Shown piece by piece: positions 3,784 to 59,982 of a stretch of 64,000 nucleotides of DNA (position 1 is its first letter; the number at the start of each line of letters is the position of its first letter). The notes beneath the pieces are model-generated. The model had not been told where the DNA came from. It saw only the letters and a list, made by a program, of their open reading frames with translations, and did not search any database. Source of the DNA: an uncultured Candidatus Saccharibacteria bacterium. GTDB lineage: Bacteria; Patescibacteriota; Minisyncoccia; UBA6257; 2-01-FULL-56-20. Location: NCBI GenBank assembly GCA_964387675.1, contig CAYLWL010000002.1, positions 22,514 through 86,513 of the forward strand, read 5' to 3'. A program made the translations under genes and the position numbers.

Positions 3784-4128
3784 ATGAGTAATACAAAATC
3801 TTTTAAAGATTTAATTGTATGGCAGAAAGCGCGGAGTTTGGCGGTTGCGGTATATAAACTTTCTGAACAATTTCCTAACGTAGAGCTATATGGCCTAACA
3901 AGTCAAATGCGTCGCGCGGCCATTTCCATTTCTTCCAACATCGCCGAAAGTTACCACCGTTTTCATAGAAAAGAAAAACAGCAGTTTCTTTCTATCGCTT
4001 TTGGCTCCGGCTCGGAACTAGAAAGCCAAATAGAAATCGCCAAAGTTTTATTTCCAAAGCTGGATTATCGAGAAAGTGAAGAATTATTGTTGGAGGTTAT
4101 GAAAATACTAAATAATTTTCTACAATGA
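3784..4128 (+). CDS. four-helix-bundle protein (23S rRNA intervening-sequence protein / DGR Avd-like family), copy 1
   Basis: 114 aa. WQKARSLAVAVYKLSEQFPNVELYGLTSQMRRAAISISSNIAESYHRF matches the S23-ribosomal/IVS four-helix-bundle family. Flanked by inverted TAGAA repeats. Confidence 0.8.
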   Translation: MSNTKSFKDLIVWQKARSLAVAVYKLSEQFPNVELYGLTSQMRRAAISISSNIAESYHRFHRKEKQQFLSIAFGSGSELESQIEIAKVLFPKLDYRESEELLLEVMKILNNFLQ

Positions 4129-10502: not shown

Positions 10503-10560
10503 ATGTCTGAATTATAGGAAAAATTCTTGATATCTGCAAAATATCCGATATAATACTGAG

Positions 10561-11871
10561 ATGAGGTTGCGGGTTATTTTGGGAATAGTTGCTCTCGGCG
10601 CCATATTTTTTTTGGTTTTTGTGCCGCGCGTGGTTATTATCGCGCCCGTTGAACTTGCGAAAGTCGCCGTGAAATCGGCCGCTTCCGTTCTCCCCGGCAT
10701 TCCGGAAGCGATCGTTCCAGAGTCGAAACAAGGCCAGTCGAAAATATCGGGAACATCGGATTTGCCCAATCAGCCGCCGCTCGCAAACCCGCCGGATGTC
10801 GCAAAGGGGATCTATGTGACCGGTTGGTCGGCGGGTTCGCAGTCGAGAATAAGCTCGCTCATCGCGCTTGTGAAGCGCACGGAAGTAAACGCGATGGTGG
10901 TGGATATCAAGGATTATTCGGGCAATGTTTCGTACAGAACGGGGCTTCCGGAAGTTGTCGCGGCGGGCGCGGAAGGAGAAATCCGCGTCGCTCAGCCGAA
11001 TGCCCTCATCAAACGGCTTCACGACGAGCATATCTACATCATCGGGCGCATCACCGTGTTCCAGGATCCCATTTTGGCGAAGGCGCATCCCGAGTGGGCG
11101 CTTCAAAACAAAGTGACCGGCAAAACATGGACAGATAGCAAAAAACTTTCCTGGATGGATGCGGCCGCCAAGCCCGTTTGGGATTATACTATTGCTATCG
11201 CCAAGGATGCTTTCGCGCGCGGCTTCGACGAAATTCAATTCGATTATGTGCGGTTCGCCTCCGACGGCGCGCTCGGAGAGATCGATTATCCGTTTTGGGA
11301 CGCGAAAACGCCGCGGCACAAAGTCATCGCCGAGTTTTTCAAGTATCTGCGGGACAGCTTGCCGGGCAAGAAGATTTCCGCCGATCTTTTCGGTCTTGCG
11401 GCAGTTGATACCTGGGATGACCTGGGAATAGGCCAGGTTATTGAAGACGCCTACAAAAACTTCGATTACGTTTCGCCGATGGTGTATCCTTCGCACTTCG
11501 CCGCGGGAACGCTTGGCTATAAAAGCCCCGCCCAGCATCCGTACGAAATCGTAAAGTATTCGATGGAGCAGGCGCTCGCGAGGTTAGCAAAGAGCAAAGA
11601 GCAAAGAGCAAATAGTTCTTCTACTATTATTATCACAACATCATCCGATCAATTCGCTATCGGCCCTTTGCCCTTCGCTGCGAAGTTACGCCCGTGGCTT
11701 CAGGACTTCAATCTCGGAGCAACCTATAACGCGGAGATGGTGCGCAAGCAGATCCAGGCGACCTATGACGTTTTCCTGAACGGCACTTCGAGCGATCCTT
11801 CCAGATTCGGCGGCTGGATACTCTGGGATCCCGCGAATACGTACACGGAAGGAGCGTTGGAGCGAGGATGA
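10561..11871 (+). CDS. secreted/membrane-anchored hypothetical protein, possibly GH-like TIM-barrel (DUF4015/GHL10-type) family
   Basis: N-terminal TM/signal (ILGIVALGAIFFLVF). Motif block GIYVTGWSAGS...VNAMVVDIKDYSGNVSY recalls the COG1306 putative glycoside hydrolase family. Contains the in-frame repeat insertion LAKSKEQRANSSSTIIITTSS (11581-11640). Confidence 0.4.
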   Translation: MRLRVILGIVALGAIFFLVFVPRVVIIAPVELAKVAVKSAASVLPGIPEAIVPESKQGQSKISGTSDLPNQPPLANPPDVAKGIYVTGWSAGSQSRISSLIALVKRTEVNAMVVDIKDYSGNVSYRTGLPEVVAAGAEGEIRVAQPNALIKRLHDEHIYIIGRITVFQDPILAKAHPEWALQNKVTGKTWTDSKKLSWMDAAAKPVWDYTIAIAKDAFARGFDEIQFDYVRFASDGALGEIDYPFWDAKTPRHKVIAEFFKYLRDSLPGKKISADLFGLAAVDTWDDLGIGQVIEDAYKNFDYVSPMVYPSHFAAGTLGYKSPAQHPYEIVKYSMEQALARLAKSKEQRANSSSTIIITTSSDQFAIGPLPFAAKLRPWLQDFNLGATYNAEMVRKQIQATYDVFLNGTSSDPSRFGGWILWDPANTYTEGALERG

Positions 11872-11875
11872 TACT

Positions 11876-12619
11876 TTGAAACACATGACACAAACATACG
11901 AACTAAAGCTCGAAAAATTCAGCGGACCGCTTGAAAAACTCCTCGAATTGATCGAAGAGAAAAAGCTTCAGATTGCCGAAATCAGCTTGGCTCAAGTTAC
12001 GGATGATTTTTTGAAGTATTTTAAGGCGCTTACCGATCTCGAGCGGGATTTGCATCTTGTGGCGGATTTTATTTCTATCGCAAGCAAGCTGATCCTTATA
12101 AAGTCAAAGTTCTTACTGCCGGATTTGACGCTTACGCCGGATGAAGAGCAGGGCATCAAAGACCTTGAGAAGCGCCTCAAAATGTATCAAGAACTCAAGC
12201 CGGTGTTGAAGATTCTCGAGAAGCTTTGGCAGGGAGCGGAACGGGAATTCGGCCGGGAATACTTTTTGAGCAAGGGCTACGTATCGGGCGGAGATGCCCA
12301 TTTTGTTTTTTACCCGGGCAAGGGGCTGTATACGCAAGCTCTCTTCGAAGCGGCAAAAAAGCTTTTCGACGCGCTCCGCGTGGAGGAGCTCGAAACGAAA
12401 ACAATCAAAGAAAAGATCATCAGTATTGAAGAAAAGATTGGGGAGGTGATCAAAAGGATTGAGAACGAATTAGAGATGAACTTTTCCAATCTGTCGAGCA
12501 AAAAATCCCGATCGGAAATCGTAGTCATCTTCCTCGCTATTTTGCACCTGGCTCGCGAGCAGCTCATATATCTTGAGCAATCGGAGCATTTCTCTGATAT
12601 AATCGTTAGAAAGAAATGA
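11876..12619 (+). CDS. scpA: segregation and condensation protein A
   Basis: LEKFSGPLEKLLELIEEKKLQIAEISLAQVTDDFLKYF matches the ScpA N-terminal signature. Followed by scpB. Confidence 0.8.
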   Translation: MKHMTQTYELKLEKFSGPLEKLLELIEEKKLQIAEISLAQVTDDFLKYFKALTDLERDLHLVADFISIASKLILIKSKFLLPDLTLTPDEEQGIKDLEKRLKMYQELKPVLKILEKLWQGAEREFGREYFLSKGYVSGGDAHFVFYPGKGLYTQALFEAAKKLFDALRVEELETKTIKEKIISIEEKIGEVIKRIENELEMNFSNLSSKKSRSEIVVIFLAILHLAREQLIYLEQSEHFSDIIVRKK

Positions 12620-12650
12620 GATATGAGATATGAGAGATGAGGTCATAAAC
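12606..12650. repeat. ATGAGA-family hairpin arm (left arm flanking four-helix-bundle gene copy 2)
   Basis: agaaagaaatgagatatgagatatgagagatgaggtc. Provides the ATG of the 4HB ORF. Confidence 0.7.
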
Positions 12651-13004
12651 GAAGAAAAGTTTATTTTCGAGGATTTAAGGGTGTATCATAGAGCGTTGCA
12701 GCTTGCCGTTGAGCTTACTAAAATTGCAACAAAACTCCCCCACAGTTACTCGAGGATACGAGACCAGTTAATCGGGGCAGTTATTTCTATCCCATTAAAT
12801 CTTGCCGAAGGATCAGGTAGGTTGGGTGAAAAGGATAAAAAGAACTTCTATAAATTTAGTCGCTCTTCGGCATTTGAACTGATTCCAATTATTGATATAA
12901 TTTACCAATTAGAGCTTATCAACAAAGAGAAAAGAAATAATATTCGCCGCGAAGTTGTAGAACTTTCGCGTATCATTTCTGCTTTAATAAAAAAATCGTC
13001 CTAA
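12630..13004 (+). CDS. four-helix-bundle protein (23S rRNA IVS protein / Avd-like), copy 2
   Basis: KFIFEDLRVYHRALQLAVELTKIATKLPHSYSRIRDQLIGAVISIPLNLAEGSGR. Paralog of the 28266-28637 copy (about 60-65% identity by eye). Confidence 0.8.
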   Translation: MRDEVINEEKFIFEDLRVYHRALQLAVELTKIATKLPHSYSRIRDQLIGAVISIPLNLAEGSGRLGEKDKKNFYKFSRSSAFELIPIIDIIYQLELINKEKRNNIRREVVELSRIISALIKKSS

Positions 13005-13040
13005 TTTCTCATTTCTCATGTCTAATTTCTCAATAGAAAA
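13000..13040. repeat. ATGAGA-family hairpin arm (right arm); overlaps scpB start
   Basis: cctaatttctcatttctcatgtctaatttctcaatag. ATG TCT AAT TTC TCA = MSNFS of ScpB. Confidence 0.7.
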
Positions 13041-13623
13041 ACTTGCGGAACTCGAAGCCCTCTTATTTATCCACGGTGAGCCGTTGGCTTTGAAGAAAAT
13101 CAGGTCTCTTTTGGATGTCAAACCCGAGGAATTGGATTCGCTCATCGCCGAATTGAAAAAGTGCCTCGAAACCGAGAATAGGGGACTCGCGCTCGTCGAG
13201 GATGGCGAGAAAATACAGCTGGTAACCAAGCCGAAGTTCGGCAAAATCCTCGAGAGTTTTATAAAAGAGGAATTATCGGAAGACCTGACGCCGGCGAGTT
13301 TGGAGGCCATGGCGCTCATCACGTATTTCGGGCCTATTTCAAGAAGCCGGCTTGATTACCTTCGCGGCGTCAACTCCACGTTTATTTTAAGAAGTTTGCT
13401 TCTGCGGGGGCTCGTGGAGCGTTTTCCCGACCCCGAGCGGCAAAACGCTTTTTTGTATCGCCCAACTTTTGATTTGTTGAGGCACTTGGGGCTTGAAAAA
13501 AAAGAGGATCTGCCGGACTTCGAAAAGTTCCAGTCGCTCATCAAGGCATTTGAGGCCCAGCAGGAGGCGCCGCCCGCAGCAGATTCTGCCATCGGCATAG
13601 TTTCCGACGAACAGAACAAATGA
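13018..13623 (+). CDS. scpB: segregation and condensation protein B
   Basis: ELEALLFIHGEPLALKKIRSLL and the tandem winged-helix pattern of ScpB. Confidence 0.8.
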   Translation: MSNFSIEKLAELEALLFIHGEPLALKKIRSLLDVKPEELDSLIAELKKCLETENRGLALVEDGEKIQLVTKPKFGKILESFIKEELSEDLTPASLEAMALITYFGPISRSRLDYLRGVNSTFILRSLLLRGLVERFPDPERQNAFLYRPTFDLLRHLGLEKKEDLPDFEKFQSLIKAFEAQQEAPPAADSAIGIVSDEQNK

Positions 13624-14144
13624 CCTTAAAATCTTATATCTCTCCCGGGGTGAAAATAAAGAGAAGCAAAATTCAAGGCCTTGGGTTGGCCGCTGTAAAA
13701 AGTTTTAGAAAAGGAGACATCGTTGGCATAAAGAATGGCCATATTTTCGACAAGAAACAGTTTAAAAAACTCGGTGGATTTCAGAGTGATCTTGGCCGCG
13801 CGTTTTTACAAATAGCCGACAACTTTTTTATTGGACCCTCGCAACCTAAAGAATTGAAAAGAAGTAATATGTTTGTAAATCATTCTTGTGATCCCAACAT
13901 TGGGTTTCTGGGAAATATTGTTTCGGTTGCTATGCGTGACATAAGAACGGGGGAAGAACTAACCAACGATTACGCTACTTGGGTGAACTATCCATCTTAC
14001 GAATTAAGATGTAATTGTGGGAGTGGGACTTGTCGCAAAGTTATTACAGGTAGAGATTGGCGTCAGCCAAAACTTCAGAAAAAATACAAAGGATTTTTTT
14101 CGGCTTATATCCAAAAAAAGATTCACACGACACATGACACTTGA
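13620..14144 (+). CDS. SET-domain protein-lysine methyltransferase
   Basis: SET signature NHSCDPN and ELTNDY, plus Cys-rich post-SET CNCGSGTCRK. The 4-nt overlap with the scpB stop suggests translational coupling. Confidence 0.8.
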   Translation: MTLKSYISPGVKIKRSKIQGLGLAAVKSFRKGDIVGIKNGHIFDKKQFKKLGGFQSDLGRAFLQIADNFFIGPSQPKELKRSNMFVNHSCDPNIGFLGNIVSVAMRDIRTGEELTNDYATWVNYPSYELRCNCGSGTCRKVITGRDWRQPKLQKKYKGFFSAYIQKKIHTTHDT

Positions 14145-14158
14145 TACTTGATACGAAC
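14125..14158. repeat. GTGTCA/TGACAC-family tandem repeat at SET gene 3' end
   Basis: cacgacacatgacacttgatacttgatacg. Encodes the C-terminal HTTHDT* of the SET protein. Confidence 0.55.
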
Positions 14159-15227
14159 CATGACCGACGACTTTCATAAATTCATTTTTCTGGGCGCGAT
14201 GATCGTTCTCGCCGTTTTCTCGAACCGCGATTCATTGTATCGGCAGAAAGCGGTGGTGGCCGACGCGAAGCAGTTTGCCCAAAATCAAACATCCCCGCTT
14301 GCGGTGAGCCGAGTCGAACCGCCCATGTTCGTTTTGAATCCTCCGAAAAAACAAGCGACCGCTCCCGCGTACCTCGGCGAACCGCGCGCGGCTGTTTCGG
14401 AAGATGCGTTTCCGCCTCTTGCGGAGGAAAAGAAATCAAGCTCCGTTCTTCAATCGTCTCCGGACGCGCCCGTCACGAGTTTCAAAAAAGTCGGGAATGA
14501 GGATCCGTCGAACGTGGGAGCCAACGTGGTTTTGGTTGCCGATCTCGCGAGCGGCGACGAATTCTTTTCGAAGGGTCCCGAAAAACGGTGGCCCATTGCC
14601 TCTATTACGAAGTTGATGTCCGCCGCAGTTGTTTCGAAAGAATTGGCTTTTCATCAATCGACGACGTTGCTGGAGGCCGATTTTCCTCTTGAGAGTCCCG
14701 GAAAAAACCTGAAAATCGAAGACAGGTATTCTGTCGCGGATTTGATGCTCGCGATGCTTCTCGAATCAAGCAACGAATCGGCGGAAGCGTTGGCCCGTAT
14801 GTATGGTCGTGAAAACTTTCTATCGGCGATGAATCAAACGGCGGCGCTCTGGGGCATTCCGGGCACGCACTTCAGCGATCCGACGGGGTTGTCTCCTTCG
14901 AATCAATCCACGAGCGCCGATTTGCGGAAGCTCGCCTTGACGATATACGGGGAATACCCGGAGATTTTCAAAATAACGAAAAAAGCATCTGCCAGAATCA
15001 CCGAACTCAATTTCGGCAAAAGGCTGTCGCTCACGAACATCAATCTTCTCGCGTCCCGCGCGGACTTTTTAGGCGGCAAAACCGGCTACATCGACGAGGC
15101 GGGGGGCAACCTGCTTTCGATCTTCTCTTATGCCCGCCGACCGATTATCATTATCGTACTGGGAAGCGACGATCGCTTCGGCGAAACGGAAAAGCTTCTC
15201 ACTTGGTTCGAGAAAAACTATCGTTAA
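14148..15227 (+). CDS. dacA: D-alanyl-D-alanine carboxypeptidase (peptidase S11, PBP5/6-like)
   Basis: N-terminal TM. SxxK (ASITKLM), SxN (LLESSNESAEALA), KTG (GGKTGYIDEAG). Confidence 0.75.
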   Translation: MIRTMTDDFHKFIFLGAMIVLAVFSNRDSLYRQKAVVADAKQFAQNQTSPLAVSRVEPPMFVLNPPKKQATAPAYLGEPRAAVSEDAFPPLAEEKKSSSVLQSSPDAPVTSFKKVGNEDPSNVGANVVLVADLASGDEFFSKGPEKRWPIASITKLMSAAVVSKELAFHQSTTLLEADFPLESPGKNLKIEDRYSVADLMLAMLLESSNESAEALARMYGRENFLSAMNQTAALWGIPGTHFSDPTGLSPSNQSTSADLRKLALTIYGEYPEIFKITKKASARITELNFGKRLSLTNINLLASRADFLGGKTGYIDEAGGNLLSIFSYARRPIIIIVLGSDDRFGETEKLLTWFEKNYR

Positions 15228-15335: not shown

Positions 15336-16382
15336 ATGCTCATCTTCCAAACTATCCGCGTGATGATTCTTACGGCCATTGCGTTCCTCGTGGCGCTCGC
15401 CGTGACGCCGCTGTGGTTCGGTTTTTTGAAGAAGCATCAGGTATCGAAGCAGATTAGAGATGGCGCTCAAGCACCCGTGTTCCACAAGTTTCACGAGAAA
15501 AAGGCGGGCACGCCCACGGCGGGAGGAGTGATTATTTGGGCAACCGTTCTCGGCCTCGCTCTTTTATTTTTCGCGGTGTCGAGGATGTCTGACGGCGTGT
15601 GGACATACCTGAACTTCGTGAACCGGGCCGAAACCTACCTGCCGCTCGCGGCGCTCGCCCTCGCGGCGCTTTTCGGGCTTCTCGACGATTGGTTTGGAAT
15701 GCGCAAAATTGGAGGCGCTCCCGGCGGCGGCCTCAAAATTCGCCACAAGTTGATTCTCTACGCCGTTCTTGCCGGAATCGGGGCGTGGTGGTTTTACTTC
15801 CGCTTGGGTTGGGACGTGTTGTACATCCCCTTTTTTGGAAACCTCGTGATCGGAGCGTGGTATATCCCGCTTTTTATTTTTATCATCGTCGCGAGCGCCT
15901 TCTCCGCGAACGAAACCGACGGTCTCGACGGGCTTTTGGGGGGAGTTTCCCTGTTCGCTTTCTTGGCCCTCACCACAGTCGCGTTCTTTTTGCATCGGTA
16001 CGATCTCGCGGCGTTCGGCGGAATGATGGTGGGGGCGCTCCTCGCGTTTTTATGGTTCAACATTTATCCGGCGAAGTTTTTTATGGGAGATACCGGTTCA
16101 ATGTCTTTGGGAATCACGATAGGCGTTATTTCGATGCTCACGAATACCACGCTTCTCCTCCCGTTCTTCGCGATTATCCTTGTTATCGAATCCCTCTCGG
16201 TGATTATTCAGCTCGCGGCAAAGAGAGTCCTGCATAAAAAGATTTTTCTTTCCACCCCCATCCACCACCACTTCGAGGCGCTTGGTTGGCCGGAATCGCA
16301 AGTGACCATGCGTTTTTGGATCATCTCGGCTGTTTTTTGCGGACTGGGACTCGTGCTCTTCTTCGCGTCGAGGTTTTTGTAA
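15336..16382 (+). CDS. mraY: phospho-N-acetylmuramoyl-pentapeptide transferase
   Basis: KAGTPTAGGVIIW (the MraY motif KxGTPTMGG), NETDGLDGL, PIHHHFEALGW. 348 aa polytopic protein. Confidence 0.8.
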   Translation: MLIFQTIRVMILTAIAFLVALAVTPLWFGFLKKHQVSKQIRDGAQAPVFHKFHEKKAGTPTAGGVIIWATVLGLALLFFAVSRMSDGVWTYLNFVNRAETYLPLAALALAALFGLLDDWFGMRKIGGAPGGGLKIRHKLILYAVLAGIGAWWFYFRLGWDVLYIPFFGNLVIGAWYIPLFIFIIVASAFSANETDGLDGLLGGVSLFAFLALTTVAFFLHRYDLAAFGGMMVGALLAFLWFNIYPAKFFMGDTGSMSLGITIGVISMLTNTTLLLPFFAIILVIESLSVIIQLAAKRVLHKKIFLSTPIHHHFEALGWPESQVTMRFWIISAVFCGLGLVLFFASRFL

Positions 16383-16402: not shown

Positions 16403-16467
16403 GAATCATTAAATTAAAATCATTTCCGTTATAACATAATATTATGTTATAACGGAAATGATTTTGT
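16403..16467. terminator. perfect long palindrome after mraY (putative terminator/regulatory hairpin)
   Basis: aatcatttccgttataacataat|attatgttataacggaaatgatt followed by ttgtgg. Confidence 0.55.
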
Positions 16468-28265: not shown

Positions 28266-28637
28266 ATGAGCAATGAAAAATTTATTTTTGAAGATTTAAG
28301 GGTTTATCACGGGGCATTAAAACTTTCAGTGGAGCTTACTAAGCTGGCTACGAAATTTCCACACGACTATTCGAGAATACAAAATCAATTAATTGGAGCA
28401 GCTATTTCTGTTCCCTTGAATCTCGCCGAGGGTTCTGGAAGGGAAAGCGATAAGGATAAAAAGAATTTTTATAGAATTAGTAGATCATCTATTTTTGAAC
28501 TCGTGCCTCTTATTGATATAATTTACGAACTAGGACTCATAGGAAGCGACAAGCGAGATGAAATTCGTCACGAAGTTGCGGAACTTTCGCGAATTGTTTC
28601 CACCTTAATGAAAAACAAAGTTTCTCAAAAGTCCTAA
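28266..28637 (+). CDS. four-helix-bundle protein (23S rRNA IVS protein / Avd-like), copy 3
   Basis: MSNEKFIFEDLRVYHGALKLSVELTKLATKFPHDYSRIQNQLIGAAISVPLNLAEGSGR. Confidence 0.8.
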   Translation: MSNEKFIFEDLRVYHGALKLSVELTKLATKFPHDYSRIQNQLIGAAISVPLNLAEGSGRESDKDKKNFYRISRSSIFELVPLIDIIYELGLIGSDKRDEIRHEVAELSRIVSTLMKNKVSQKS

Positions 28638-59670: not shown

Positions 59671-59982
59671 ATGACTTTTATCCAACCCAACAAAAATAGC
59701 AATATCATCAATATCACGGTCTTGTTTTTTCTTTCGGCATTGCTCATTGCGGGCGCCATTCTTTTGGTTATTCTTTATAATAGATTCGTGAATTTCGAAC
59801 ACGGAGTTTCAGGCATCAAACTTCAACTGAAAGAAATTCAAGCTCAAAATGTGGAAATTGAAGATAAGATTTTCACGCTGATTGACTCGTCGAAATCGGA
59901 AAGTGTGTCGCTCGGAAAACTGATCCCCGATAAAAACCCTAAATACTTCGAAGCAAAATGGTCATACGCCTCTCAATACTGA
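59671..59982 (+). CDS. ftsL: cell division protein FtsL-like
   Basis: 103 aa, single TM (ITVLFFLSALLIAGAILLVIL) then coiled coil. Sits between rsmH and ftsI. Confidence 0.5.
   Translation: MTFIQPNKNSNIINITVLFFLSALLIAGAILLVILYNRFVNFEHGVSGIKLQLKEIQAQNVEIEDKIFTLIDSSKSESVSLGKLIPDKNPKYFEAKWSYASQY

Follow-up and report, generated by a model that had tools for sequence, protein, structure and literature searches.

A compositionally foreign SET-domain methyltransferase gene in the scpA–scpB operon of a Saccharibacteria genome, probably linked to scpB by accident of insertion

Does a gene whose start codon overlaps the stop codon of scpB encode a partner of the chromosome-condensation machinery, or can such a position mislead? 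The question is raised by a gene for a SET-domain protein found in the 64,000-nucleotide stretch of DNA analyzed here (hereafter the window), whose coordinates and those of its surroundings are collected in Table 1. An earlier note on this DNA placed the gene in a condensation operon and suggested that its product methylates a nucleoid-associated or condensin-related substrate. The explanation considered probable here, taken as a whole, is that of a foreign stand-alone SET methyltransferase in a housekeeping operon, whose link to scpB is accidental.

Table 1. Features of the SET locus, in window positions.
Feature	Position	Strand	Basis or detail
DUF4015 gene, first of the co-directional run	10561..11871	+	PF13200, 311 bits
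scpA	11876..12619	+	PF02616, 93 bits
Four-helix-bundle gene (PF05635) of low GC, an insert separating scpA and scpB	12630..13004	+	Pfam match, composition
scpB	13018..13623	+	PF04079, 125 bits; MBI4087496.1
SET/post-SET methyltransferase gene	13620..14144	+	174 aa, pI 9.95
ATGA overlap of SET start codon and scpB stop codon	13620..13623	+	read from sequence
N-terminal GxG cofactor motif, G20-L-G22	13677..13685	+	G22, L23 invariant; aligned to MLL1 HGRGLF
NHSCDPN, residues 87-93	13878..13898	+	N87, H88, S89, C90, P92, N93 invariant; aligned to MLL1 NHSCEPN
ELTNDY, residues 113-118	13956..13973	+	homologue alignment and MLL1 alignment
Post-SET CxCx4C (C131, C133, C138)	14010..14033	+	3/3 Cys invariant; aligned to MLL1 CNCGAKKC
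Basic C-terminal extension, family-specific, R139-T174, after post-SET	14034..14141	+	conserved residues and predicted helices
S11 D-Ala-D-Ala carboxypeptidase gene, begins 15 nt past SET stop	14160..15227	+	PF00768
mraY, last gene of the run	15336..16382	+	TIGR00445, 192.5 bits
20-bp perfect hairpin after mraY	16418..16463	.	AT-rich

The SET gene is already annotated by domain in GenBank, where its protein (MBI4087495.1) has 164 residues and, hence, a later start, probably at a GTG within window positions 13620–13650. Judged from the alignment, this later start looks mis-called and the ATG at 13620, the first start codon past the preceding in-frame stop, appears better, because the first ten residues hold invariant positions: S5 and S8 are the same in all 24 homologues aligned, and the ATG at 13620 is needed to keep this conserved N-terminus. 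The 4-nt overlap with the scpB stop that had been remarked on earlier is, thus, real. At the other end of the gene, a tandem repeat (ACTTGAT ACTTGAT AC, window 14137–14152) runs across the stop codon into the 15-nt spacer that precedes the S11 peptidase gene.

That the product carries a genuine SET domain, as the earlier note had held, is confirmed by the NHSCDPN, ELTNDY, and post-SET Cys signatures together with the match to PF00856. This is the sole Pfam match of the protein (45.1 bits against a gathering cut-off of 22.4) and covers residues 20–118 and profile positions 1–104 of 105, i.e., nearly the whole model. When conservation was scored on the alignment of the 24 homologues, the GxG, NHxCxPN, and ELxxDY motifs proved invariant or nearly so, and Y118 corresponds to a Trp residue in most family members. 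The post-SET Cys residues, together with C90, form a presumed zinc site. An AlphaFold2 model built from the homologue alignment (pLDDT 96.1, pTM 0.89) matches MLL4, MLL1, NSD1, ASH1L, and BurB in Foldseek searches at about E 1e-9, and both the model and these structure matches place the protein in the SET fold. Homologues align to it through about residue 169, and its 35-residue C-terminal extension contains six invariant residues in the 24 homologues (R139, G144, D146, W147, Q153, and Y156) and two helices predicted by the model (150–155 and 162–173). Binding of S-adenosylmethionine would take place through the GxG, NHSC, and ELTNDY motifs. No signal peptide is obvious by eye at the N-terminus. 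As part of the explanation favored above, the protein is probably a cytoplasmic, stand-alone SET and post-SET methyltransferase that depends on S-adenosylmethionine.

The SET gene occupies a co-directional run of genes that extends from the DUF4015 gene to mraY, in which the start of the S11 gene was set by a called gene in another locus (L001) and by conserved N-termini read from sister-locus DNA. The hairpin behind mraY is much stronger than the other terminator-like sites of the region and probably ends the transcription unit. A promoter-like site with 11/12 matches is found ahead of the run (10527–10554), which is only suggestive, since such sites are no commoner than in shuffled sequence (6 vs 5.3). 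Co-transcription of the SET gene with scpB within this hairpin- and promoter-framed run appears likely, because a scan found no terminator-like site at either the scpB–SET or the SET–S11 junction. At the ends of the four-helix-bundle gene, and exactly there, lie the two arms of a 16-nt inverted repeat (12612–12627 and 13001–13016, 88% complementary), which may mark the borders of an insert or be a chance find among 58 pairs.

From this same-strand arrangement, a partnership with condensin can be read, in which the SET enzyme would methylate ScpB, ScpA, SMC, or another nucleoid-associated protein while translational coupling keeps its level in step with that of ScpB. The overlap and the shared operon are real, the protein has a strongly basic pI of 9.95, and prokaryotic SET enzymes have been reported to methylate endogenous DNA-binding proteins (cpnSET on Hc1 and Go1-SET on MC1-alpha, PMC3980110). 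Against this reading, neither an HU nor an SMC gene was detectable in the window, in which E. coli HupA was used as a tblastn query and very long open reading frames were scanned for. Further evidence comes from the settings of SET and scpB genes in other genomes.

Seen from the SET gene, the linkage is confined to one genome population. Identical copies in six metagenome contigs share the operon, and a selection test by nucleotide comparison over these contigs was uninformative, as all copies are identical. The ScpA and ScpB sequences of the window were searched against the six-frame open reading frames of all 94 SET loci, and scpA/scpB was found within 5 kb of the SET gene in one of the 80 non-redundant loci from other genomes; in this single exception (L043), the genes lie about 1.2 kb away on the opposite strand. 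The closest non-identical homologues (53–60% identity), which are CPR proteins, all belong to low-GC genomes and have other settings, namely nusA–SET–H+PPase (L007 and L012), MetRS–SET–ASCH (L009), Fic–SET adjoining an integrase (L011), and NUDIX–PCC–SET–SIMPL (L014). In the third of these settings, the SET gene is 58% identical and is immediately preceded by the Fic-domain gene, beside an rve integrase (L011, 1888–3642). Moreover, clustering of the open reading frames within 3 kb of the SET gene in 86 loci gave no neighbor family that recurs across phyla: the largest clusters consist of alternative-frame reading frames of the SET gene itself, and the first genuine neighbor family, with 15 loci that are all from Verrucomicrobiota, reflects clade synteny.

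The same picture is obtained from scpB. In the four sister loci (L095–L098), which carry the nearest ScpB relatives (71–78% identical), the SET gene is missing without exception. Three of them (L096, L097, and L098) have the order scpA–scpB–S11–mraY, with 9–46 nt from scpB to the peptidase gene and no four-helix-bundle gene at the scpA–scpB junction, and the remaining one (L095) reads scpA–PDDEXK_3–scpB–DUF5674–unknown–S11–mraY. When these loci and 63 more from a metagenome scan were screened with the family HMM, the SET gene was present in none of the 67 ScpB-anchored loci, and scpB is followed by the S11 peptidase gene in 43 of them. Conservation of the scpB–SET linkage in relatives is, thus, not borne out, and of the proposed placement in a condensation operon, the shared strand and the overlap hold but the position is not conserved. 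Enlarged scpA–scpB and scpB–S11 junctions elsewhere hold genes for PDDEXK_3, CofD, and D-Ala-D-Ala ligase (Ddl), a Trp-repressor-like gene, and unknown reading frames, and DUF5674 also figures among the genes at these junctions in relatives. The two junctions are, thus, variable slots within a conserved operon, and the presence of unrelated genes at the position of the SET gene in relatives speaks against a condensin partner. Low-GC PDDEXK_3 genes occupy the scpA–scpB junction in two related loci (L095, 4552–4947; L109, 3524–3907), the slot that the four-helix-bundle gene takes in the window, which points to independent small inserts at one slot in related genomes.

The overlap itself is not a mark of partnership, since an overlap of exactly 4 nt is found in four of the 42 same-strand adjacent gene pairs of the window; it is a habit of a compact genome, in which 17 of these 42 pairs overlap or lie at most 20 nt apart. 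A further four-helix-bundle gene of low GC (3784–4128) takes part in one of these four overlaps, so that the frequency of such overlaps, inserts included, counts against reading the scpB–SET overlap as coupling to condensin.

Base composition sets the SET gene apart from its surroundings. Across the 64 gene calls of the window, which are crude, mean GC is 0.501 (sd 0.046) and mean GC3 is 0.58, and the SET gene has a GC of 0.387 (z -2.5) and a GC3 of 0.354. Over 78 loci, the GC3 of SET genes follows that of their flanks (mean difference +0.006, sd 0.086), and the largest deficit, 0.27, occurs at this locus. The copy beside the Fic gene (L011, 0.20 below) is the only other one with a foreign composition, and in 76 of the 78 loci, SET GC3 lies within 0.15 of the flanks, as expected for a resident gene. 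In the genomes of the closest homologues, flanking genes have 36–42% GC. Composition, therefore, points to a recent acquisition from a low-GC donor, given a GC3 far below that of the flanks and closest homologues that reside in low-GC genomes. The SET gene is one of five low-GC outliers in the window, three others being PF05635 four-helix-bundle genes (23S rRNA IVP/Avd-like; 3784–4128, 12630–13004, and 28266–28637), which have GC values of 0.36–0.37 vs 0.50 and look like foreign inserts scattered over the 64 kb; one lies between scpA and scpB, and a second shares 4 nt with the gene downstream of it. A further low-GC outlier (GC 0.38) is a reading frame of 103 aa without a Pfam match (59671–59982), which, in the crude calls, shares 25 nt with the gene that follows.

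A foreign composition also bears on the methylation of condensin. The nucleoid-associated or condensin-related substrate had been drawn from gene position only, and it is not sustained by a gene of foreign composition in a slot that holds unrelated genes elsewhere; a SET enzyme that serves as a condensin partner is, thus, considered unlikely. A variant in which the gene was recruited after its acquisition, with its product methylating ScpB, ScpA, SMC, or another nucleoid protein and its translation tied to that of ScpB, is rated as very improbable, and would, if true, mean that a bacterial condensin is regulated by lysine methylation.

The foreign signature could instead indicate cargo of mobile DNA with a role in conflict, i.e., a toxin, an anti-defense factor, or an effector that acts on the host cell of an episymbiotic bacterium. 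Such a role would fit the foreign composition and the patchy, context-free distribution of the gene, the relative with Fic and rve integrase genes beside it, the low-GC signature that the SET gene shares with the scattered PF05635 genes, and the existence of SET effectors in pathogens (PMC3980110). Nevertheless, scans with PADLOC and PHROGs returned no match, the locus has no integrase or transposase and no meaningful repeats bracketing the gene, no signal peptide is obvious, and GC3 near that of the flanks in 76 of 78 loci is what a resident gene would be expected to show. This role is, therefore, held to be highly unlikely.

The explanation favored here is, thus, that the SET gene would have been gained recently by horizontal transfer, from a donor of low GC, and inserted into the short spacer between scpB and the S11 peptidase gene of a conserved DUF4015–scpA–scpB–S11–mraY operon. 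Because of this insertion into a conserved operon spacer, the gene would probably share a transcript with scpB and be coupled to it in translation, and the enzyme would be expressed as a passenger of the scp and cell-wall operon. The link to scpB would be an accident of insertion without functional partnership, and the enzyme would have an intact cofactor site, depend on S-adenosylmethionine, carry a zinc-stabilized post-SET region, and probably be dimeric. If so, a tempting connection between chromatin-type methylation and condensin arises from the accident of a gene insertion, and the locus itself matters little. Overlapping a housekeeping gene by 4 nt is a poor indicator of shared function in the compact genomes of CPR bacteria, since foreign genes land in the short spacers of conserved operons there, and the locus serves as an example of how operon position can mislead in these genomes.

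Of modest wider interest is the family to which the protein belongs, a very large one of stand-alone SET methyltransferases. Its members, of about 170 aa, come from bacteria of soil and groundwater and from some archaea. Relatives are encoded in at least 549 species-representative genomes, which include those of Acidobacteriota, Verrucomicrobiota, Actinomycetota, Chloroflexota, Proteobacteria, Patescibacteria, and a few archaea, and an exhaustive search returned 5171 clusters (50% identity) at E<=1e-3 and 87 at E<=1e-30. Members are named "SET domain-containing protein-lysine N-methyltransferase" at NCBI, NCBIfam has no model for the family, and a literature search found no paper that characterizes it or that deals with SET domains in Patescibacteria/Candidate Phyla Radiation. 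Among the 149 representatives examined of the 150 best, 28 are tandem fusions of about 350 aa with two near-full-length SET modules. Examples of such double-module proteins are P0248, P0249, P0251, and P0254, and in some the NHSC motif is lost from one copy. Since this two-module arrangement is seen in many relatives, single-module proteins such as the present one probably act as dimers.

Among the closest known SET systems is MLL1/KMT2A, whose SET domain is matched by the 24-homologue profile at E 2.9e-24 over residues 10–138, with the GxG, NHSCxPN, ELTxDY, and CxCx4C motifs aligned. In contrast to MLL1/KMT2A and yeast Set1, which are H3K4 methyltransferases, the SET protein is a stand-alone enzyme of 174 aa without N-terminal flanking domains and has a shorter insert after NHSCDPN. 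Furthermore, MLL1 ends at the post-SET region, whereas the SET protein adds the conserved basic extension of 35 residues. Neither of two Tyr residues of the KMT2/SET1 enzymes is present: the Phe/Tyr-switch residue of MLL1 (the first Tyr of ELTYDY) is replaced by N116, a position held by His in most homologues, and the EYAG residue is replaced by K38. Both are Tyr residues of the lysine channel. To our knowledge, histones, WRAD partners, and COMPASS subunits do not occur in bacteria of this group.

A different kind of substrate is exemplified by BurB of Burkholderia thailandensis, a stand-alone SET enzyme of 172 aa that methylates free methionine and belongs to the DMSP/malleicyprol pathway with burI, burD, and burE (PMC12542666). 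By analogy with this methionine S-methyltransferase (MSMT; PDB 9l4t/9l4v), the protein studied here might act on free methionine or another metabolite rather than on a protein. However, its sequence match to BurB is restricted to residues 85–141, compared with residues 10–138 at E 3e-24 for MLL1. The bur pathway genes are absent from this locus, and no burI-, burD-, or burE-like genes for a decarboxylase, aminotransferase, or dehydrogenase adjoin the SET gene here or in five related contexts; its neighbors are scpA, the four-helix-bundle gene, scpB, S11, and mraY at this locus and nusA, MetRS, Fic, and NUDIX at related ones. CPR genomes, moreover, have little secondary metabolism. A small-molecule methyltransferase is, thus, unlikely. 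The SET protein would most likely transfer the methyl group to an endogenous protein, at a lysine residue, with protein lysine taken as the default because the best whole-domain matches are lysine methyltransferases. Such a substrate appears probable from these matches with moderate confidence only, since the two channel Tyr residues are replaced and BurB methylates free methionine.

For prokaryotic SET enzymes reported to act on endogenous DNA-binding proteins, the SET protein can be likened, by description, to cpnSET of Chlamydia pneumoniae, which methylates Hc1, and to Go1-SET of Methanosarcina mazei, which methylates MC1-alpha (PMC3980110); for neither enzyme has a link to scpAB been reported. 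By this precedent, methylation of a nucleoid protein may be possible, and the genomic context gives it no support. The viral enzyme vSET works as a dimer. This protein of Paramecium bursaria chlorella virus 1 (PDB 1n3j) is, like the SET protein of the window, a minimal SET enzyme; for the SET protein, tandem fusions among relatives suggest a dimeric state as well.
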